NCBI GenBank assembly: GCA_045117495.1
Contig: JBGUNT010000089.1
Location: 75-64,074, forward strand
Origin: Candidatus Limimorpha sp.
Lineage (GTDB): Bacteria; Bacteroidota; Bacteroidia; Bacteroidales; F082
Direction of reading: 5' to 3'
DNA: 64,000 nt
Shown here one piece after another: positions 3,328 through 60,464 of this stretch. Made by a program: the position numbers and the translations under genes. The first letter of the stretch is position 1, and each line of letters begins with the position of its first letter. The notes under the pieces were generated by a model. The model saw nothing but the letters and a program-made list of their open reading frames with translations, was not told where the DNA came from and did no database searches.

Positions 3328-3776
3328 ATGATATCTCCCTGTTCGTCAACAAGCACGCCCCAGCTGACCGCCGTCATCGCGCCGTCTTCAAAGAAGAAGT
3401 CGATCAAGGCATCCTCGAACGAAACGCGCAACTCGCCATCCTCGGTTTCCTCTTCCAAATCCTTGAAACCGTTGTCTTTCATCAGCTTGACGACTTCGTC
3501 CTTCTTCAATTCAAAGACCTTCTTCCCAAACAATGTAGCCTCCTTGTTCTCGGTCTCGAAGCAAGCCACCACCGATTTGGTGATGCCTTCAAAATAGATA
3601 TTGGTTTGGATGCCATCGTATTCATAATAGATGGAGCGATTGCCCGTCTCCTCCATATCACTCAGTTCCTCATAGAAATCAGGCATTTCCAGGATCTTAA
3701 CGGTGTCGTCGAGCGTCATTCCGAAAGGTATCTCTCCATAGCCTTTCAGGGGATTAATGGTAAAGTCTTTCATCAT
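3324..3776 (-). CDS. hypothetical acidic cytoplasmic protein
   Basis: 150-aa ORF with no signal peptide. Its stop overlaps the nth start by 4 nt, which suggests translational coupling. Confidence 0.5.
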   Translation of the reverse strand: MMKDFTINPLKGYGEIPFGMTLDDTVKILEMPDFYEELSDMEETGNRSIYYEYDGIQTNIYFEGITKSVVACFETENKEATLFGKKVFELKKDEVVKLMKDNGFKDLEEETEDGELRVSFEDALIDFFFEDGAMTAVSWGVLVDEQGDII

Positions 3777-3846: not shown

Positions 3847-5085
3847 TTATTCGAAGCGAATCGACTTGGTAGGGCTGATGCGGTTGATGACAGAGGTCGG
3901 GATGAGCAGCATCAAGACCCAAAGCAGGAAAGTGCCCAGATTGATGAGCAGTACCGTCCAAAAATGCAATTCGATAGGCACTGCAGACAGATAATAGGTC
4001 TCGGCCGGCAGCTTGATCAAACCCGTGTATTTTTGCAGGAAACAAAAGCCTAGACCGATAGCATTGCCAATGAGCATCCCGATGAGCAGTATGCGCAACG
4101 AACGACGCAAAAATACCTCGCGAACGAACTTGTTGCTGGCGCCCATCGCCTTCAGCAGGCCGATGGTCGAAGTACGTTCTATTATGATGATGAGCAACAT
4201 GCTGACGACCGTAATACCAGCGACCAAGAGCATCAGGGCCATAATCAACCAGACGTTGGTATCCAACAAATCGAGCCAGTCGAAAATTTGCGGATGGCTT
4301 TCGCGGGCGGTATAAGAGGCCAATTCAGAGGGCAAGGCATAATAGAGTTTCTCATTGACTTGATTGGCATCGGCATCCTTGTCCAATGCGATTTCAAGCA
4401 GTCCGGCCTCGTTGTCTTCCCAGTCGTTCAGCTTGCGGATTTGGTTGAGATCGGCGAACACATAGCGCTCGTCAAACTCATAGAGTCCTGTCTCGTAGAT
4501 GCCTTTTACAGTGAATTTGCGACCTCTCGCCTGCTGGTCCTTGTCAATAAACCATACGCGTACATCATCGTCCACATTGAGCAGCATCTTGTCGGCGATC
4601 ACCTTGGACACCAGCACTTCCGTTGAGCGTTCACCAGCGGCATATTTTGGCGTTTGGCCACCGATGAGGCAGTGGGCGAAATAGCTCCAGTCATAGTTTT
4701 CGTCCACACCCTTCAAAATAACCCCCTGAATCTCGTCGTCAGTCTTGATCATGCCCGCCTTGTCGGCCACCATCTGGTAATGACAGATGCCTTCTACGGC
4801 ATCCAATCTGCTCATCAGAAGCGAATCCAACTGAAACGGCGTTTCTTCCACCGACTCATTCTTGTCGAGCGACTGCACATGGATGGGTGCCACAAAGCCC
4901 ACCACCTTGTCGCGAATCTGGTTCTTGAAGCCCACCACGACAGCCCAGGCGATGAGCATCACGATGATGGCCAAGGCCACACTCGCCACTGCCAATCGCA
5001 TCACCGTCGAAGACAAATTTTCCTTCGAAAGCGAAAAAATCCGGTCTGCTATGAATTTTGGGCCCGACATTTGTAGGTTTTTCAA
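3847..5085 (-). CDS. FtsX/LolC/LolE-family ABC transporter permease
   Basis: 412 aa. N-terminal TM helix, large periplasmic domain, three C-terminal TM helices with an FtsX-like region (IIIIERTSTIGLLKAMGASN). Confidence 0.8.
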   Translation of the reverse strand: MKNLQMSGPKFIADRIFSLSKENLSSTVMRLAVASVALAIIVMLIAWAVVVGFKNQIRDKVVGFVAPIHVQSLDKNESVEETPFQLDSLLMSRLDAVEGICHYQMVADKAGMIKTDDEIQGVILKGVDENYDWSYFAHCLIGGQTPKYAAGERSTEVLVSKVIADKMLLNVDDDVRVWFIDKDQQARGRKFTVKGIYETGLYEFDERYVFADLNQIRKLNDWEDNEAGLLEIALDKDADANQVNEKLYYALPSELASYTARESHPQIFDWLDLLDTNVWLIMALMLLVAGITVVSMLLIIIIERTSTIGLLKAMGASNKFVREVFLRRSLRILLIGMLIGNAIGLGFCFLQKYTGLIKLPAETYYLSAVPIELHFWTVLLINLGTFLLWVLMLLIPTSVINRISPTKSIRFE

Positions 5086-5114: not shown

Positions 5115-6347
5115 ATGAAACGACATTTCTTTGCCATCACTTTGCTGTTTTGCGTGTTTCTCCCGCAATGTCACGCCCAAGTCAGCCAAAACCATAACGA
5201 ACCAACAAGCATCATTACGACAGAGCAAGAGCCTTTATTGGCTTTTGTCGACAAGGCGCATTACATCTCTGCCGCAATGCAGATGGACGACTATCTCACG
5301 CTCCTGCAGGGAAAACGTGTCGGCGTAGTCGGCAACCAGACGAGCATCGTAGGAGAAAGGCATCTGGTGGACACTTTGCTCTCGCTGGGCATCGACATCC
5401 GTAAGATCTACACGCCTGAGCACGGCTTCCGCGGCACTGCCGACGCCGGCGCCAAGGTGAACAGCGGCAAAGACGAAAAGACGGGTATCGCCATCGCTTC
5501 ATTATACGGCAAAAACAAGAAGCCCACACCAGAAATGCTGCAAGGGATCGACATCATACTCTTTGACTTACAAGACGTCGGGGTTCGTTTCTACACTTAT
5601 ATTTCCACCATGAGCTACGTGATGGAAGCCGCTGCCGAAAACGGCATCCCCGTTGTCGTCCTCGACCGTCCCAATCCGAACGGCTTCTACGTCGACGGCC
5701 CTGTCCTGAAGGCTGAAAACCATTCTTTCGTGGGCATGCACCAGGTGCCTGTCGTCTACGGCATGACCATCGGTGAATACGCCCTGATGGTAAACGGCGA
5801 AGGCTGGCTTAAAAACGGCATTGCCTGCGACCTGACCGTGATTCCCATCAAGGGTTACATCCGCAACGCCATCTATGAATTGCCCGTGAAGCCCTCTCCC
5901 AACCTACCCAACTGGGAGTCGGTGTACCTCTATCCTACCCTTTGCTTCTTCGAAGGCAGTAGCGTCAGCGTGGGGCGCGGCACAGAGACGCCTTTCCAGG
6001 TTTATGGCCACCCCGACATGCGAGGGAGCTTTACTTTCACGCCCCAAAGCACCAGCGGTGCCTCAAAGCCCCTACTCGAAGGCCAACGTTGCCGCGGCGA
6101 GAACCTCGTGGAGTTCGCCCACGACTTTCCACACAACGAAAACCAGCTCCACTTAGAGTGGATTATCGATGCCTATCAACAAATGAAAGACAAAGGCTTC
6201 TTCAAGGATTACTTCCGTCTGCTGGCCGGTGACAAGCAACTGCAGCGCGCCATAGAAAACGGAAAAAGCGCGGACGAAATCCGCGCTTCATGGAGCGATG
6301 ACCTTGCATCGTTTTTGGCCATCCGGCAGAAATACCTACTCTACTGA
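5115..6347 (+). CDS. DUF1343-family protein (NamZ-like exo-beta-N-acetylmuramidase family)
   Basis: Signal peptide. Family-typical segments RVGVVGNQTS and ILFDLQDVGVRFYTYISTM. Confidence 0.7.
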   Translation: MKRHFFAITLLFCVFLPQCHAQVSQNHNEPTSIITTEQEPLLAFVDKAHYISAAMQMDDYLTLLQGKRVGVVGNQTSIVGERHLVDTLLSLGIDIRKIYTPEHGFRGTADAGAKVNSGKDEKTGIAIASLYGKNKKPTPEMLQGIDIILFDLQDVGVRFYTYISTMSYVMEAAAENGIPVVVLDRPNPNGFYVDGPVLKAENHSFVGMHQVPVVYGMTIGEYALMVNGEGWLKNGIACDLTVIPIKGYIRNAIYELPVKPSPNLPNWESVYLYPTLCFFEGSSVSVGRGTETPFQVYGHPDMRGSFTFTPQSTSGASKPLLEGQRCRGENLVEFAHDFPHNENQLHLEWIIDAYQQMKDKGFFKDYFRLLAGDKQLQRAIENGKSADEIRASWSDDLASFLAIRQKYLLY

Positions 6348-14061: not shown

Positions 14062-14197
14062 ACCGTCATTGCGGGCTTGACCCGCAAATCGAAGATTAGC
14101 TACGCTGAATCAAAGATTTCGACGTAGTCAATCTCCTATACGTAAGGGTGTCGTCTCCGCACGTAGGAGATGGCGGATCCTTGTCCGCCATGACGGG
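14062..14197. mobile_element. gene-less miniature element bounded by inverted hairpins (CCGTCAT-hairpin-AATC ... GAGAT-hairpin-ATGACGG)
   Basis: Left end at 14062-14090 has the GCGGGCTTGACCCGC hairpin. Right end at 14167-14197 has the GGCGGATCCTTGTCCGCC hairpin. Same terminal architecture as the two GIY-YIG cassettes at 57.3 and 58.8 kb. Confidence 0.6.
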
Positions 14198-19787: not shown

Positions 19788-19795
19788 CCGCCGAT

Positions 19796-19892
19796 ACCAA
19801 TAGGGGTGCCTTATCTGCTACGCAGATTGAAAGACAGGCTGAGATCAAACCCTTTGCACCTGATACGGATAATGCCGAAACAGGGAATCGAG
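19796..19892 (+). promoter_or_regulatory. TPP (THI-box) riboswitch
   Basis: Conserved elements AGGGGTGCC ... GCTGAGA ... ACCCTTTGCACCTGATACGGATAATGCCGAAACAGGGAA match the TPP aptamer consensus. Confidence 0.85.
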
Positions 19893-19948
19893 TTCCTCAT
19901 CTTTCCTCTATTGATTTATTGAATTATTAATCATTAAATCAACGAGTT

Positions 19949-33582: not shown

Positions 33583-33694
33583 AATAATATAATTTTAGGT
33601 TTGACATTCAATCCATTACATTAAAATGCTTTAGGGAAACGTGGATACACCTTATGCTATAAGGAAAGCCAGCTCTTGTCCCGAAAGCCTCGTT

Positions 33695-33860
33695 TCGTCG
33701 ACAGGCGGCAGGTCTTCTGACTTACTCCTTGAAGCGGGTCGCCTTCCCGAAAAACAATGTTTTCAGTGGCATAGTGACCAGCGTGAAGAGCTTACAGCAG
33801 CGGGAACTGTCCAGGATTTGCACCCGATTCCCTATTGAGCCTTGAGGCACCGCTTATCGG
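33695..33860 (-). promoter_or_regulatory. cobalamin (B12) riboswitch aptamer
   Basis: The minus strand reads GGTGCC...AATAGGGAATCGGGTGCAAATCC...GACAGTTCCCGCTGCTGTAA...GCCACTG...GGGAAGGC...AGTCAGAAGACCTGCC. The B12 box is at 33707-33722. The expression platform continues to the ATG at 33582. Confidence 0.88.
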
Positions 33861-33863
33861 TTG

Positions 33864-33871
33864 CAAAGATA
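33864..33871 (-). promoter_or_regulatory. -7 box (TATCTTTG on minus strand) driving the B12 riboswitch operon
   Basis: Plus-strand CAAAGATA immediately upstream of the riboswitch 5' end. Confidence 0.55.
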
Positions 33872-42174: not shown

Positions 42175-42262
42175 GGAGATATGGCTGAGTGGTCGATAGC
42201 GGCGGTCTTGAAAACCGTTAAGCCGAAAGGCTTCGGGGGTTCGAATCCCTCTGTCTCCGCCA
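42175..42262 (+). tRNA. tRNA-Ser (anticodon TGA), CCA encoded
   Basis: Acceptor GGAGATA pairs with TGTCTCC. Anticodon loop CTTGAAA. Long variable arm. T-loop GGTTCGAATCC. Confidence 0.92.
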
Positions 42263-42296
42263 AGCGGCAATTGTCGCTTTCTTTTTTTCCTGTTTT

Positions 42297-42382
42297 GGAG
42301 AGATGCCGGAGTGGTCGATCGGGGCGGTCTCGAAAACCGTTGAACGCTTTGCGTTCCAAGGGTTCGAATCCCTTTCTCTCCG
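42297..42382 (+). tRNA. tRNA-Ser (anticodon CGA)
   Basis: Acceptor GGAGAGA pairs with TCTCTCC. Anticodon loop CTCGAAA. Long variable arm. T-loop GGTTCGAATCC. Confidence 0.92.
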
Positions 42383-55937: not shown

Positions 55938-57143
55938 CTAAGGGCGGCGGATAGTGAGTGGGATGGATTCGGGGTGGGTTTGGCAGAACGAATGTGCGTC
56001 TTTGACGACGCAGGCAAGATAGCCGCCTCCGCCGGCGCCGGGCATTTTCCAAGCTAGGACATCGGGGATAGCGGAATAGCGTTTGATGAAGTCTTCAATC
56101 GTAGGAGATTGCGGGTCTTCGCCCGCAATGACACCATGGGGGTGAACCATTCCAGGAAACATGGAAGTCTGGGCATTAAACGAAGCTTTGTAGGCCTTAG
56201 CAAAGGCGTCCAAGTCCTTATGCATGATGGCTTGCCAGCAGTCGTCGGCAGCTTGGGCCAAGGCCTTCACTTTCGGCTCGGTGATGTCTTTGCCTTCCAC
56301 CACGGAACAGCCCGGTTGGCGTGGCTCCATGGGAATCATGACGAGATGCTGCTCGAGCCAACTCAAAATGTCTTCGTCTTGACAAGTCTCAATCTTGATG
56401 GGCCAATAGAGTTTGTCGTAATAGTGTCGCACCAGCCCCGGCATGCAGATGCCAATGCTGTCCTGTGCCCCACTGATGATGCCGTCGCTACGCTCCGGAT
56501 CGTTCTCGAAACAGAAGACGAGCTTGGCGAGGGTCTCAGGGTCCATGTCGGGCAGTCGCATCGGCCATATCCTTTTGATCATGTTGCGTGTCGAGGTGGA
56601 GAGGCCGCAGCGCTCGCGCACCTCGAAAGTGGGCTCCAGCGAGATAGTGATGGCCCATCCTGGGGCGAAGCAGGAGACGTAGGGCTGGTCGATCCATGTG
56701 CCGGCGAGGTCCAAGCGGGTGGGAATCTGGCAGAGGTCCTGTTTCAGCGCGGTGGAAGAACGGGCTTCCAACCCTTTGGAGGGGGTGCGTTGCAGCACAA
56801 TGTATTGGATGCCTCGCTCCTCGCAAAACTTACGTTTCGCTTCGGAGGCACCGTCCTCGTTGACCACAAAGATATCAGGCTTCACCCGATCGACAGTGCC
56901 GATGAAATCCATCACGCCGTCGCCATCGTTGATGAAGGCGTCTTTCACGTAGCGGATGGCCTTCACCATGAAGAGGCGCTCCTTTTCGGGATAGAGCGTC
57001 TTATGGTTTTTGTAGTGCAGGATGGTCTCGTCGGAGCCAATGCCCACATAGAGGTCGCCATACTGCGCCGCCTGGCGGAAGAACTCGACGTGGCCGCTGT
57101 GGAGGAGGTCGTAACAACCGCTGACGAAAACCTTCGGTTTCAT
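55938..57143 (-). CDS. fusion of a cytidylyltransferase-fold nucleotidyltransferase and a GHMP-family sugar kinase
   Basis: N-terminal VFVSGCYDLLHSGHVEFF (HxGH). C-terminal GHMP motif II-like CGLSTST and motif III MPGAGGGGY. Start moved to MKPKV. Confidence 0.7.
   Translation of the reverse strand: MKPKVFVSGCYDLLHSGHVEFFRQAAQYGDLYVGIGSDETILHYKNHKTLYPEKERLFMVKAIRYVKDAFINDGDGVMDFIGTVDRVKPDIFVVNEDGASEAKRKFCEERGIQYIVLQRTPSKGLEARSSTALKQDLCQIPTRLDLAGTWIDQPYVSCFAPGWAITISLEPTFEVRERCGLSTSTRNMIKRIWPMRLPDMDPETLAKLVFCFENDPERSDGIISGAQDSIGICMPGLVRHYYDKLYWPIKIETCQDEDILSWLEQHLVMIPMEPRQPGCSVVEGKDITEPKVKALAQAADDCWQAIMHKDLDAFAKAYKASFNAQTSMFPGMVHPHGVIAGEDPQSPTIEDFIKRYSAIPDVLAWKMPGAGGGGYLACVVKDAHSFCQTHPESIPLTIRRP
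56105..56132. repeat. family-B hairpin (GAGATTGCGGGTCTTCGCCCGCAATGAC) lying in frame inside the kinase CDS
   Basis: Nearly identical to the intergenic hairpin at 57708-57738. Translated as GVIAGEDPQSP. Confidence 0.75.
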
Positions 57144-57216
57144 TAGTGTAGAGTTTAGAGTTGTGGTTTGTTGAGAGTTCAAAGTTTAGAGTTGTGGTTT
57201 GTTGAGAGTGTATAGT
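57144..57216 (-). promoter_or_regulatory. G-poor heptamer-repeat leader upstream of the kinase gene
   Basis: One C in 73 nt on the plus strand. A 27-nt perfect direct repeat AGTTTAGAGTTGTGGTTTGTTGAGAGT occurs at 57152-57178 and 57183-57209. Confidence 0.7.
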
Positions 57217-57699
57217 TTAAGAGTTGTTAGTGTCATTTGGTTTGTAGGAGTTGAGGAGGCCTGAGAGAAGACGAGCGTCTTCTTGCCCTTCCTTATAAGG
57301 CACTCTATGGGCCGTACCGCGGCCCTCATCGCGGGCTTGACCCGCGATCTCCGCGATTTCCCCTTTCTCTTCATACGCCTCTTTCACCCCCCGCATATAA
57401 TCAGCATCAACTCCAATGGCTTCAGCCAAATCTTTCCAATCAGGATTAAAGCCATTGATCAAGTCCTCTTTCCACTCTCTACGCCACTTCTTCAGTTGTT
57501 TCTCTCTATGTATTCCAACATCCAAGCGATCATACTCTTCATAATACACAAGTTTTTCAGTATTATACCTGTCAGAGAACCCTTGATTGATGTGTAACTT
57601 ATGTTCTGCAACTCTCCTTTTTAGGTTCCTTGTGACTCCTGTGTAAAGAGTGGTGTTGTACTTGTTGGTTAATATGTAAACGATTCCTTTTGGGCCCAT
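57217..57699 (-). CDS. GIY-YIG nuclease-family protein, copy 1 (C-terminally extended)
   Basis: GIVYILTN...LYTGVT..L..R..EH GIY-YIG core. About three quarters identical by eye to copy 2 over roughly 110 aa. The ORF then reads through the flanking hairpin (EIAGQARDEG). Confidence 0.8.
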   Translation of the reverse strand: MGPKGIVYILTNKYNTTLYTGVTRNLKRRVAEHKLHINQGFSDRYNTEKLVYYEEYDRLDVGIHREKQLKKWRREWKEDLINGFNPDWKDLAEAIGVDADYMRGVKEAYEEKGEIAEIAGQARDEGRGTAHRVPYKEGQEDARLLSGLLNSYKPNDTNNS

Positions 57700-57738
57700 A
57701 GCATTATGAGATTGCGGGTCTACGCCCGCAATGAGGGG
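57323..57738 (-). mobile_element. GIY-YIG cassette 1 bounded by inverted family-B hairpins
   Basis: Left end CCCTCATCGCGGGCTTGACCCGCGATCTC (57323-57351). Right end GAGATTGCGGGTCTACGCCCGCAATGAGGGG (57708-57738). These are reverse complements, with compensatory stem changes. Confidence 0.5.
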
Positions 57739-57851
57739 TTAACAGCATTGAGAGGGGCTAACAACGATTGGATTTACGCACGCAACGAAAGGTTAACAGC
57801 ATTGAGGGGGTCTACATGGATTATGCCAAAAGCCAATGGCCAAAGGTGCGA

Positions 57852-58793
57852 TTATCGCTCCGCGCGCATAGGGTTATTCAAAAAGTCATCATACGCCAAG
57901 CGGATGCCGTCCTCCAAGTCGGTCTTGTAGGTCCAGCCGAGGGCAGTGGCCTTGCTCACATCCAACAGCTTGCGAGGTGTGCCGTTGGGGCGGGTGGTGT
58001 CCCACTTGATGTTGCCTTCGTAGCCAATAACCTTGGCGACCAGTTCGGTGAGTGCCTTGATGGTCAGCTCCTTCCCTGTCCCAGCGTTGACGGTCTCGTT
58101 GCCGCTGTAGTTGTTCATCAGGAAAACGCAGAGGTTGGCGAGGTCGTCGACATATAGGAACTCGCGCAGCGGCGAGCCGTCGCCCCAGCAGATTACCTCC
58201 TTCAGCCCGTTGACCTTGGCTTCGTGGAAGCGGCGGATCAACGCGGGCAGCACATGGCTATGCTCAGGATGGTAGTTATCGTTGGGGCCATACAGGTTAG
58301 TCGGCATCACGCTGATGTAGTCGGTGCCATACTGGCGGTTGAGGAACTCACAATACTTCAGGCCGCTGATCTTCGCCAAGGCATAGGCTTCGTTGGTCTT
58401 CTCAAGCTCGCCTGTGAGCAGGCATGACTCCTTCATAGGCTGTGGCGCCATACGGGGATAGATACAACTGCTGCCGAGGAACTCCAGCTTCTTGCAGCCG
58501 TTCTTCCAAGCCGCATGGATGACGTTCATCTCGAGGATCATGTTGTCGTACATGAAGTCGGCCAGGGCGTTCTGGTTGGCGATGATGCCGCCGACTTTGG
58601 CCGCGGCGAGGAAGACGTATTCGGGCTTTTCGGCTTCGAAGAAGGCCTCCACCTGGTCCTGACGCGTCAAGTCCAGTTCTTTATGCGTCCTGGTGATGAT
58701 GTTGGAATAGCCTTGTCGTTGCAATTCACGGACGATGGCCGAGCCCACCATCCCACGGTGACCAGCAACGTATATTTTGCTGTTTTTGTTCAT
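57852..58793 (-). CDS. fcl: GDP-L-fucose synthase
   Basis: Rossmann motif KIYVAGHRGMVGSAI. Catalytic YxxxK (YALAK). Start moved to MNKNSK. Confidence 0.93.
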   Translation of the reverse strand: MNKNSKIYVAGHRGMVGSAIVRELQRQGYSNIITRTHKELDLTRQDQVEAFFEAEKPEYVFLAAAKVGGIIANQNALADFMYDNMILEMNVIHAAWKNGCKKLEFLGSSCIYPRMAPQPMKESCLLTGELEKTNEAYALAKISGLKYCEFLNRQYGTDYISVMPTNLYGPNDNYHPEHSHVLPALIRRFHEAKVNGLKEVICWGDGSPLREFLYVDDLANLCVFLMNNYSGNETVNAGTGKELTIKALTELVAKVIGYEGNIKWDTTRPNGTPRKLLDVSKATALGWTYKTDLEDGIRLAYDDFLNNPMRAER

Positions 58794-58847
58794 TGTTTTT
58801 GTATTTGCTTCTAATACTGCGCTATCGGACAAACCCAAAACGGGAGA

Positions 58848-59301
58848 CCCTCATGGCGGACAAGGATCCGCCATCTCTCACGCTTAGGGTGGCTCTGGAT
58901 CATAATATCCATTTTCATACGCATCTTTTACAGACTGCATATATTCCTCATTCAATCCTATCGAATCCGACAAGTCTTCCCATGTAGGATTGAATTCGCT
59001 TATCAACTTCTCTTTCCATTCCCTACGCCATTTCTTCAGCTGTTTTTCTCTGTGGATACCATCAACGAGAAGATCATAGACTTCATAATACACCAGTTTC
59101 TCTGTGTTGTATCGTTCAGAGAAGCCATTATTAATATGGAGCTTATGCTCGGCCATCCTACGTATGAGGTTTCTGGTCACTCCTGTATAAAGGGTTGTGT
59201 TGTTTTTATTTGTGAGGATGTAGACAATTCCTTGGAGAGGCATAGGAGCGAGTGTGTCGTTTCGTGTCAGAGATCGCGGGTCTGACGCCCGCGATGAGGG
59301 G
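58848..59301 (-). mobile_element. GIY-YIG cassette 2 bounded by inverted hairpins
   Basis: Left end CCCTCATGGCGGACAAGGATCCGCCATCTCTC (58848-58879). Right end GAGATCGCGGGTCTGACGCCCGCGATGAGGGG (59270-59301). Same CCCTCAT...ATGAGGGG termini as cassette 1. Confidence 0.5.
58884..59243 (-). CDS. GIY-YIG nuclease-family protein, copy 2
   Basis: 119 aa with GIVYILTNKNNTTLYTGVTRNLIRRMAEHK. Confidence 0.85.
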   Translation of the reverse strand: MPLQGIVYILTNKNNTTLYTGVTRNLIRRMAEHKLHINNGFSERYNTEKLVYYEVYDLLVDGIHREKQLKKWRREWKEKLISEFNPTWEDLSDSIGLNEEYMQSVKDAYENGYYDPEPP

Positions 59302-59384
59302 TTTGGGGTGTGAGTGGGTCGTTAACGGGAAAGGTTGGTGAGAGCGTTGGATGCAATGCATTTCTACCACGAAGGAATATCCCA

Positions 59385-60464
59385 CTAATCCTCCATGTGT
59401 GTCTTCAAATACAACTTCTTCACAAACCTCATATCATGCTCGACCATGATCCTGACGAGGTCTTCGAAGGATGTCTTGCGGGGGTTCCAGCCGAGGAGTG
59501 TCTTGGCCTTGGTGGGGTCGCCGAGCAGCTGCTCCACCTCTGCCGGGCGGAAGAAGCGTGGGTCGACCTCGACCAGGCTCTTGCCCGTAGCGATGTCGAT
59601 GCCTCTCTCGTCGACGCCTTCGCCTTCCCAGCGTAGGGTAATGCCCACGTGCTTGAAAGCCAAGGTGCAGAACTCGCGGACGGTGTGGTACTCACCCGTG
59701 GCGATAACGAAGTCTTCAGGCTTCTCCTGCTGCAGGATGAGCCACATGCACTCCACGTAGTCCTTGGCATAGCCCCAGTCGCGGAGGGCATTGAGGTTAC
59801 CGAGATAGAGCTTGTCCTGATAGCCTTGCTTGATGCGTGCCGCCGCTAGGGTAATCTTGCGGGTGACGAAGGTCTCGCCGCGGCGTTCGCTCTCATGGTT
59901 GAAGAGGATGCCGTTGACGGCGAACATGCCATAGCTCTCGCGGTAGTTCTTCACAATCCAGAAGCCGTACTGCTTGGCCACACCATAGGGCGAGCGTGGA
60001 TAGAAGGGTGTGGTCTCCTTCTGTGGCACCTCTTGCACGAGGCCAAAGAGCTCGGATGTGGAGGCTTGGTATATCCTGCATTTCTTCTCCAGCCCGAGGA
60101 TGCGCACGGCTTCGAGAAGGCGCAGTGTGCCGACGGCGTCGGCTTCGGCGGTGTACTCGGGGCAGTCGAACGACACCTTGACATGGCTCTGGGCGGCCAG
60201 GTTATAGATTTCGTCGGGTTGTATCTTTTGGATGATGCGAACGAGCGACGACGAGTCGGTCATGTCGCCGTAGTGCAGGGTGAGCAGGCGCTTGTTCTTC
60301 ATGTCGCGCACCCATTCATCGAGGTAGAGGTGTTCGATGCGACCTGTGTTGAACGACGACGAGCGACGGATGATGCCGTGCACCTCGTAGCCTTTTTCCA
60401 AAAGGAACTCGGCAAGGAATGAGCCATCTTGGCCCGTGATGCCGGTGATTAATGCGGTTTTCAT
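59385..60464 (-). CDS. gmd: GDP-mannose 4,6-dehydratase
   Basis: [27 protein letters not shown]. Catalytic YGVAK. Highly conserved throughout. Confidence 0.96.

Follow-up and report, generated by a model that had tools for sequence, protein, structure and literature searches.

A probable Ssn/SRM cassette, a GIY-YIG nuclease gene between inverted hairpin repeats, in the gmd-fcl spacer of a rumen Bacteroidales operon

The Ssn system and the cassette between gmd and fcl

Proteins of the Ssn family are single-domain GIY-YIG proteins of about 94 residues that are collected in CDD as cd10448 (Chenal et al. 2025, Nat Commun 16:2388, PMC11893778). SsnA of N. meningitidis binds a hairpin of about 28 nt, the NTS (CGTCAT-TCCCGCG-MAV-GCGGGA-ATCYRG). 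It acts on single-stranded DNA (ssDNA) only and in one orientation, cuts a few nucleotides upstream and requires the flanking nucleotides; Y6, Y17 and E64 are the residues that were mutated in that study (PMC11893778). The ssn genes typically lie between Ssn-related motifs (SRMs), and the NTS-ssnA-NTS arrangement has been likened to an insertion sequence (IS) and to repetitive extragenic palindromes (REPs) with their REP-associated tyrosine transposases (RAYTs) (PMC11893778). Here we describe a unit of this kind in a 64,000-nt stretch of Candidatus Limimorpha sp. (contig JBGUNT010000089.1 of assembly GCA_045117495.1), hereafter the window. The unit, which we call cassette 2, lies between the genes gmd and fcl and is very probably an Ssn/SRM cassette, that is, an Ssn-family gene between inverted hairpin repeats, inserted into the spacer.

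Cassette 2 spans positions 58848-59301 and consists of the gene and two inverted units of about 30 nt, each made up of CCCTCAT, a hairpin with an 8-bp stem, and ATCTC. On the plus strand its left end reads CCCTCAT-GGCGGACAAGGATCCGCC-ATCTCTC (58848-58879) and its right end GAGAT-CGCGGGTCTGACGCCCGCG-ATGAGGGG (59270-59301). The minus strand carries, in this order, gmd, cassette 2, fcl, a second cassette (cassette 1, about 57323-57737) and a cytidylyltransferase-like/kinase gene (55938-57182). Both cassettes are co-oriented with the operon and their hairpins lack a T-run. A preliminary description, made from the sequence of the window, had given a 454-bp unit with these termini, and the sequence bears it out: the block that cassette 2 shares with copies elsewhere runs from tag to tag and fits the same coordinates. 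Its statements that the outer termini equal those of cassette 1, that the left stem is different and that this stem recurs in a miniature element also hold, as GGCGGACAAGGATCCGCC is found again, inverted, at 14169-14193 in that element. The gaps are 4 nt from the stop codon to the left unit and 26 nt from the right unit to the ATG rather than the 5 and 27 nt given before, a trivial difference. No Bacteroidetes-type promoter was recognized at the cassette by eye, no scan having been run. Since the cassette is also co-oriented with the operon, expression by read-through transcription is plausible.

The 119-residue product of cassette 2 matches the Pfam family GIY-YIG (PF01541, E 1.7e-14, residues 5-78), and no other Pfam or NCBIfam domain was found in it. 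For comparison with SsnA we used the 94-residue orthologue of N. gonorrhoeae (NZ_CP119140.1, 1881075-1883741; locus L182), standing in for N. meningitidis CAX49033.1. This orthologue has Y6, Y17 and E64 and lies amid nine exact NTS copies within 2.7 kb. The two proteins are 48% identical over 89 of the 94 residues (pairwise E 3e-30). Members of the Ssn family were taken to be single-domain GIY-YIG proteins of less than 150 residues with a BLASTP E value below 1e-10 and at least 75% coverage against SsnA, and the cassette 2 protein falls within both the size and the homology limits. Its Y8, Y19 and E66 align with Y6, Y17 and E64 of SsnA; among 36 clade members the two tyrosines are invariant and the glutamate nearly so. 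As to the reference record itself, the ssnA orthologue is unannotated in its gene table, and this 2.17-Mb chromosome is filed in PLSDB as a plasmid.

The protein carries about 25 additional C-terminal residues (95-119; IGxxxEYxxxVKxAYE) that are conserved in the 36 clade members, with a helix predicted at 99-110. The AlphaFold model (pLDDT 83.7) shows the GIY-YIG fold plus one extra C-terminal helix. Its best fold matches in the PDB were UPF0213 protein BH0048, Slx1 and the N-terminal domain of UvrC; the top match, BH0048, does not settle the subfamily. No solved Ssn structure was among the fold matches, and a sequence search of the PDB returned no match. No homologue was found in a phage collection, so there is no sign of a phage origin. 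The host lies close to RUG12545, a rumen metagenome-assembled genome of an uncultured Bacteroidia bacterium, which encodes a nuclease 98% identical to that of cassette 2. An exact-protein look-up gave no record for the fcl product of the window and placed the cassette 2 nuclease only on a 1.2-kb contig.

The hairpin units of the window keep the invariant flanks of the NTS: the stem is preceded by xTCAT and followed by ATC, and its 8 bp begin with AT. The stem sequences themselves differ. For the pattern CCCTCAT-N(12-26)-ATCTC, 0.14 occurrences are expected in the window; there are four, each of them a cassette end. A looser scan found seven units in the 64 kb (four cassette ends, two in a gene-less mini-element and one inside an open reading frame, ORF), five of which lie in a 3.4-kb stretch. 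As ssDNA, each of the seven forms a hairpin whose 8-bp stem consists of AT plus 6 bp, with folding energies of -8.3 to -12.8 kcal/mol and z-scores of -3.1 to -4.5. Their tags are CCTC in four units, CGTC in two and TGTC in one.

The association of such units with the gene extends beyond the window. In 80 genome loci encoding homologues, mostly 48-62% identical and from many phyla, we scanned for generic units, in which TCAT and ATC enclose a perfectly paired stem of 5 bp or more, and used simulated Markov sequences as the control. We observed 192 units against 2.75 in simulation, an approximately 70-fold over-representation, and their density was 1.48 per kb beside the gene versus 0.15 per kb elsewhere. 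Most loci had a forward unit nearest upstream (25 of 36) and a reversed one nearest downstream (26 of 34). The support for the hairpins is this enrichment and orientation; counting covariation would be circular, since the units were preselected for perfect stems. The commonest stem across these loci was TCCCGC, the canonical NTS stem.

Within the clade of cassette 2, the stem has the form NGCGGR...YCCGCN with compensated closing pairs (CGCGGG/CCCGCG, TGCGGG/CCCGCA, GGCGGG/CCCGCC, AGCGGG/CCCGCT and GGCGGA/TCCGCC). Inverted units on both sides of an ssn gene are also present in loci L002-L007 and L162-L165. The upstream units have loops of the CGTCAGA type and the downstream units CTTGA, CGAAGA or CAAGGA. 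Because upstream and downstream loops differ in this systematic way, the unlike, or hybrid, hairpin pair of cassette 2 is the norm in this clade. Each of the two cassettes of L162 has a 5' hairpin (about 2040-2090 and 4100-4150) in whose loop a second, small hairpin with a CCTCAT-like tag of its own is nested, CCTCATCGCGGGC-CCTCATTCCGCGAAGGCGGAA-CCCGCGATCTCC; L165 has a plain loop at the matching position.

Compared with the Ssn/NTS system, the locus shares a single-domain GIY-YIG protein with the catalytic Tyr, Tyr and Glu, inverted repeats of about 30 nt with the layout xTCAT-stem-loop-stem-ATC around the gene, gene-free repeats elsewhere and a clustering near genes for surface structures, which are membrane proteins in Neisseria and polysaccharide operons here. 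It differs in its stem (NGCGGR...YCCGCN with the G-rich arm 5', against TCCCGCG...GCGGGA), in a tag that is mostly CCTC rather than CGTC, in loops of 5-7 nt and in the conserved C-terminal helix of about 25 residues. The host is a rumen member of the Bacteroidales, whereas the main text of PMC11893778 makes no mention of Bacteroidota. Several diverged paralogues share one operon here, and insertion polymorphism is documented, whereas mobility is hypothesized in PMC11893778.

The hairpins also resemble the CGTC-tagged REPs. These carry CGTC, TGTC or CCTC as a tag, and their stems of 8-9 bp open with an A-T and a T-A pair (Di Nocera et al. 2013, BMC Genomics 14:522, PMC3733652). That class includes dRS3 of Neisseria and RPE-4/RPE-6 of Rickettsia, has been reported in Bacteroidetes and is said to 'lack a dedicated transposase' (PMC3733652). 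The tag, the 8-bp stem with A-T and T-A as first pairs in all seven window units, the short unpaired tail, the frequent inverted dimers including common heterodimers and the occasional copies inside genes are alike. The loops (5-7 versus 4-5 nt) and tail (CTC versus CCA) are not, and the dimers here are tail to tail and able to enclose a nuclease gene. By these sequence features, the hairpins appear to be CGTC/CCTC-tagged REPs.

Other systems are alike in outline only. In REPs or REP doublets (REPINs) with RAYTs, together called REPtrons, and in IS200/IS605 elements, a small nuclease gene likewise lies between inverted short hairpin repeats that also occur as gene-less singlets or doublets, and the enzyme recognizes the hairpin in ssDNA, as would be expected of the cassette by analogy with SsnA. 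They differ in having an HUH/Y1 transposase and hairpins that are GTAG-tagged or subterminal where the cassette has a GIY-YIG protein and a CGTC-type tag. IS200/IS605 elements are further set apart by making both cuts on one strand, whereas the inverted hairpins here predict cuts on opposite strands. With its GIY-YIG protein, CCTC/CGTC tags and inverted units, the cassette was rejected as a member of the RAYT/REPtron or IS200/IS605 groups. A GIY-YIG nuclease, being hydrolytic, would not be expected to pass through an intermediate bound covalently to DNA. The mosaic elements NIME of Neisseria and BIME of E. coli also alternate hairpins with conserved modules of 50-150 nt, comparable with the mini-element at 14063-14196 and a module of about 95 nt in L162/L164. 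Their sequences differ, and some modules here hold a nuclease gene. Rickettsia palindromic elements occur within protein-coding genes, and one unit of the window is likewise in frame in the kinase gene, where it is translated as 12-13 extra residues; this is a single case in the window, with a shorter element and a free-living gut bacterium as host.

Insertion into the spacers and copies elsewhere

The spacers were compared across 80 metagenomic loci with fcl products 90-96% identical to that of the window. In L082, where the gmd and fcl products are 97.5% and 96.5% identical, the gmd-fcl spacer is 5 bp and the fcl and kinase genes overlap. This spacer is 2-4 bp in L104 and L124 and 29-77 bp in most others, and no GIY-YIG gene was found in it in L082, L104, L124 or the 29-77-bp group. 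Most of the 80 loci lack such a gene in the spacer. L002, apparently of the same species (about 98% amino acid identity), has cassette 2 at the same place, and its fcl-kinase spacer (5394-5804) holds a 23S_rRNA_IVP gene (PF05635) where the window has cassette 1. In L084 (2947-3500) and L087 (2831-3500), the gmd-fcl spacer contains a PDDEXK_3 gene (PF13366), which in L084 is bracketed by its own inverted repeat TCACACAGAT...ATCTGTGTGA. L088 (1024-1194) has that repeat pair without the gene, which suggests a second family of nuclease-plus-repeat cassettes. Altogether, three unrelated small-gene families occupy the gmd-fcl and fcl-kinase spacers in different strains.

Hairpins without a gene are found in the same spacers. 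Tail-to-tail dimers with outward tags lie in the gmd-fcl spacer of L139 (2439-2515) and L174 (2350-2461), and solo units in the gmd-fcl spacer of L114 (about 3470-3500) and the fcl-kinase spacer of L126 (1620-1664). These may be landing pads or remnants of cassettes.

The empty sites and the other occupants of this spacer show that cassette 2, hairpins included, was inserted between gmd and fcl, which lie 2-5 bp apart in close relatives. The preliminary description had argued for insertion over ancestral linkage and called for a comparison of this spacer in related species; the comparison above and the polymorphism at L002 support it, and the orthologous gene that ancestral linkage would place in all related spacers is missing from most loci. 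There is next to no probability that the gmd-fcl-kinase operon contained the GIY-YIG gene ancestrally and that the hairpins are ordinary regulatory RNA structures. The co-orientation of the gene with the operon and its place in the same-species L002 would fit. However, the empty sites, including the 5-bp spacer of L082, already refute it, the hairpins lack a T-run and no Rfam family is present at the locus.

Close copies of the cassette are found among other genes. Proteins 91-92% identical to that of cassette 2 are encoded in other sugar operons, beside genes for uridine diphosphate-glucose dehydrogenase, an unknown 463-residue protein and a nicotinamide mononucleotide transporter. These copies, two to three per operon and co-oriented with it, have the same hairpins and are 85-88% identical to cassette 2 in nucleotide sequence. 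Alignments to copies in unrelated contexts end at 59299-59328 and 58831-58847, and the minimal shared block extends from tag to tag. Because copies at this level of identity lie between unrelated genes and their homology ends at the hairpin tags, the sequence comparison indicates that the cassette is an insertion that moves independently of its neighbors.

The nucleases of cassettes 1 and 2 are 75% identical over 110 residues, in line with the three quarters estimated earlier by eye. Cassette 1 was rejected as a local tandem duplicate of cassette 2, since this value is far below the 91-92% between cassette 2 and its copies elsewhere. The earlier view of the two cassettes as independent is thus upheld. 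The fcl-kinase spacer of L174 contains a different ssn copy (P0055), at 75% identity with the cassette 1 protein and 74% with that of cassette 2; with such values to both, its orthology to cassette 1 is not supported.

Presence and absence between conserved genes could also be produced by a classical free-standing homing endonuclease of the Seg or I-TevI type that cuts double-stranded DNA at the gmd-fcl junction of genomes lacking the cassette and enters there through repair, the hairpins being incidental terminators or mRNA stabilizers. The GIY-YIG catalytic domain is compatible with this, and the profile TIGR01453 (group I intron endonuclease) matches weakly, at 19.5 bits where its cut-off is 56. 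We consider it very improbable. The protein is a single domain of 119 residues with one short helix and has no C-terminal DNA-binding module, its closest characterized relative is the ssDNA-specific SsnA, and no match was found in the phage collection. In addition, homing is site-specific, whereas the same cassette is found at unrelated sites, and the hairpin flanks and their orientation are conserved across phyla, with hairpins occurring also without the gene.

A possible route of spread and its alternative

By analogy with SsnA and the NTS, the cassette protein would bind its hairpin in ssDNA only and in one orientation only, the hairpin units being its presumed recognition site. Nicking is predicted some 3 nt to the 5' side of CCTCAT. 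The minus strand would then be cut near 59302/59303 and the plus strand near 58845/58846, in each case just beyond an end of the cassette. Beyond this, we propose tentatively, at somewhat less than even confidence, that the nuclease nicks ssDNA when replication forks expose it or conjugation brings it in, and that these nicks allow recombination or gene conversion to carry the unit with its hairpins into further hairpin sites or dimers. Such spread would parallel that of REPINs with a RAYT, with a GIY-YIG nuclease instead, and in this proposal the nuclease would drive the movement of the cassette.

Several observations weigh against this identification and route. The biochemistry of Ssn proteins comes from Neisseria and Wolbachia. 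In Neisseria, a change of the stem sequence that kept the hairpin abolished SsnA activity (PMC11893778). The local stems have their G-rich arm on the 5' side, opposite to the NTS. Because SsnA fails on changed stems, the specificity of the nuclease here would have to have co-evolved with the stem. The published SRM string (HGTCWYN(0-2)YYVSBRHN(0-5)WNVSBRGN(0-2)RNCYNB) matches none of the seven window units, even with position 2 relaxed. Since the same string does match beside the gene in about 30 of the 80 homologue loci, the local repeats are a divergent SRM type. Some copies share a further 17-45 nt of mosaic sequence past the hairpins, which a simple move cut at the tags does not explain; this sequence is also the module of about 95 nt between head-to-head units in L162 and L164. 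The inverted ends recall those of a terminal inverted repeat transposon or a miniature inverted-repeat transposable element, but neither of the two cassettes shows a target-site duplication, nor do the mini-element and the dimers of L139 and L174. Lastly, the compared spacers included no empty and filled pair that was strictly isogenic, those of the nearest relatives being too diverged.

Two of these points, the mosaic sequence and the missing duplication, also fit the main alternative, a domesticated nuclease that does not move itself. As has been proposed for SsnA in Neisseria, it might act on incoming ssDNA, restricting or trimming it where hairpins occur in loci for surface polysaccharides, with the patchy distribution due to horizontal exchange of locus segments or to recombination between scattered hairpins. 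In Neisseria, modulation of transformation has been shown and mobility only hypothesized (PMC11893778), and every context observed here belongs to a locus for sugar nucleotides or polysaccharides; such loci are hot spots of recombination. On the other hand, such a function accounts poorly for copies of 85-88% nucleotide identity between unrelated genes with homology that stops at the tags, or for two to three copies in one operon. The gene-less dimers and solo hairpins scattered in spacers, one of them inside an ORF, are typical of proliferating repeats. We regard domestication without self-movement as unlikely, though it keeps some weight.

A wider proposal, which we consider less likely than not, is that the Ssn nuclease is the missing mobilizing enzyme of the CGTC-tagged REPs, with hairpin-ssn-hairpin units as the autonomous form and gene-less tail-to-tail dimers as the non-autonomous, REPIN-like form, and that this system is still actively colonizing spacers, and occasionally ORFs, in rumen and gut Bacteroidales. 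Such a mobile system would resemble a REPtron, with a GIY-YIG hydrolase in place of the HUH transposase. The same spacers would then be contested by unrelated small-nuclease cassettes, namely the PDDEXK_3 genes with their own inverted repeats and the 23S_rRNA_IVP genes.

Ssn nucleases were described only in 2025, from biochemistry in Neisseria and Wolbachia, with an IS-like architecture noted and mobility offered as a hypothesis (PMC11893778). The present locus extends the Ssn/SRM system to uncultured rumen Bacteroidales and adds comparative evidence that the cassette moves: sites that lack it, hairpin dimers with no gene at those sites, near-identical copies among unrelated operons and a hairpin translated as part of a gene. 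As the published search motif misses the local hairpins, the repeat census of the family is probably an underestimate. The conserved C-terminal helix may relate to an altered hairpin specificity, which would be of use should Ssn enzymes be turned into a panel of ssDNA cutters that differ in specificity. None of these additions changes the category of the element, which remains that of the known Ssn/SRM system.

Feature coordinates and further observations

The features of the locus and the other hairpin units of the window are listed in Table 1.

Table 1. Coordinates of the cassettes, hairpin units and adjacent genes in the window.
Feature	Position	Strand	Remarks
5' hairpin unit, cassette 2 (probable SRM and CCTC-tagged REP)	59270..59300	-	CCCTCAT-CGCGGG-CGTCAGA-CCCGCG-ATCTC, forward on coding strand; -9.5 kcal/mol as ssDNA
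3' hairpin unit, cassette 2	58848..58877	+	CCCTCAT-GGCGGA-CAAGGA-TCCGCC-ATCTC, inverted relative to 5' unit
ssn-type GIY-YIG nuclease gene, cassette 2, 119 aa	58884..59243	-	Pfam match and SsnA alignment
Mosaic sequence beyond 5' unit	59301..59328	-	AACGACNCACT...ACCCCAAAC; common to some, not all, independent copies
Mosaic sequence beyond 3' unit	58831..58847	-	TCTCCCGTTTTGGGTTT on coding strand; common to most independent copies
gmd (GDP-mannose 4,6-dehydratase)	59385..60464	-	Operon gene upstream of cassette 2
fcl (GDP-fucose synthase type epimerase/reductase)	57852..58793	-	Downstream of cassette 2; start taken as ATG at 58793
5' hairpin unit, cassette 1	57708..57737	-	CCCTCAT-TGCGGG-CGTAGA-CCCGCA-ATCTC
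3' hairpin unit, cassette 1	57323..57351	+	CCCTCAT-CGCGGG-CTTGA-CCCGCG-ATCTC
Paralogous ssn gene, cassette 1, 160-aa ORF	57217..57699	-	Part conserved with homologues ends near 57364
Solo hairpin unit	56103..56134	-	GTGTCAT-TGCGGG-CGAAGA-CCCGCA-ATCTCCT; in frame within cytidylyltransferase/kinase ORF 55938-57182, translated HGVIAGEDPQS
Gene-less mini-element	14063..14196		Units 14063-14093 forward and 14165-14196 reverse, tail to tail, tags outward, 71 nt between

The mini-element lies between divergent genes and has the architecture of a cassette without the nuclease gene. Its units are of the CCGTCAT-TGCGGG... and ...GGCGGA-type-ATGACGG forms, and the tail of the left unit is AATC, not ATC. 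The hairpin-encoded insert of 12-13 residues in the kinase is present in the window, L002, L084 and L126 and absent from ten other orthologues; L090 has an unrelated insert.

In cassette 1 the ORF meets no stop codon ahead of the 3' hairpin and continues across it for about 48 further residues, and many database homologues are likewise annotated at 130-184 residues. In P0003 and P0005, the ORF begins at the stop codon of the upstream gene, and the called ORF crosses the 5' hairpin.

A scan of the whole window at the Rfam gathering threshold gave no family at the hairpin or cassette sites. Elsewhere (19792-19903, 33690-33869 and 42175-42382) it found a thiamine pyrophosphate riboswitch, a cobalamin riboswitch and two tRNAs, which are unrelated to the cassette.

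The stretch just outside the 5' hairpin of cassette 1 (57738-57810) contains CCCTCAATGCTGTTAACC twice (plus strand, GGTTAACAGCATTGAGRGG), with the copies separated by about 55 nt. This motif is similar to the first 10 nt of the hairpin unit (CCCTCATTGC), and the copies may be decayed half-units. Directly upstream of the likely kinase start, at 57143-57215, is a direct repeat, CTCAACAAACCACAACTCTAAACT, in two copies. The 75-bp gmd-fcl spacer of L085 is filled with similar AACTCTAAAC-rich repeats.

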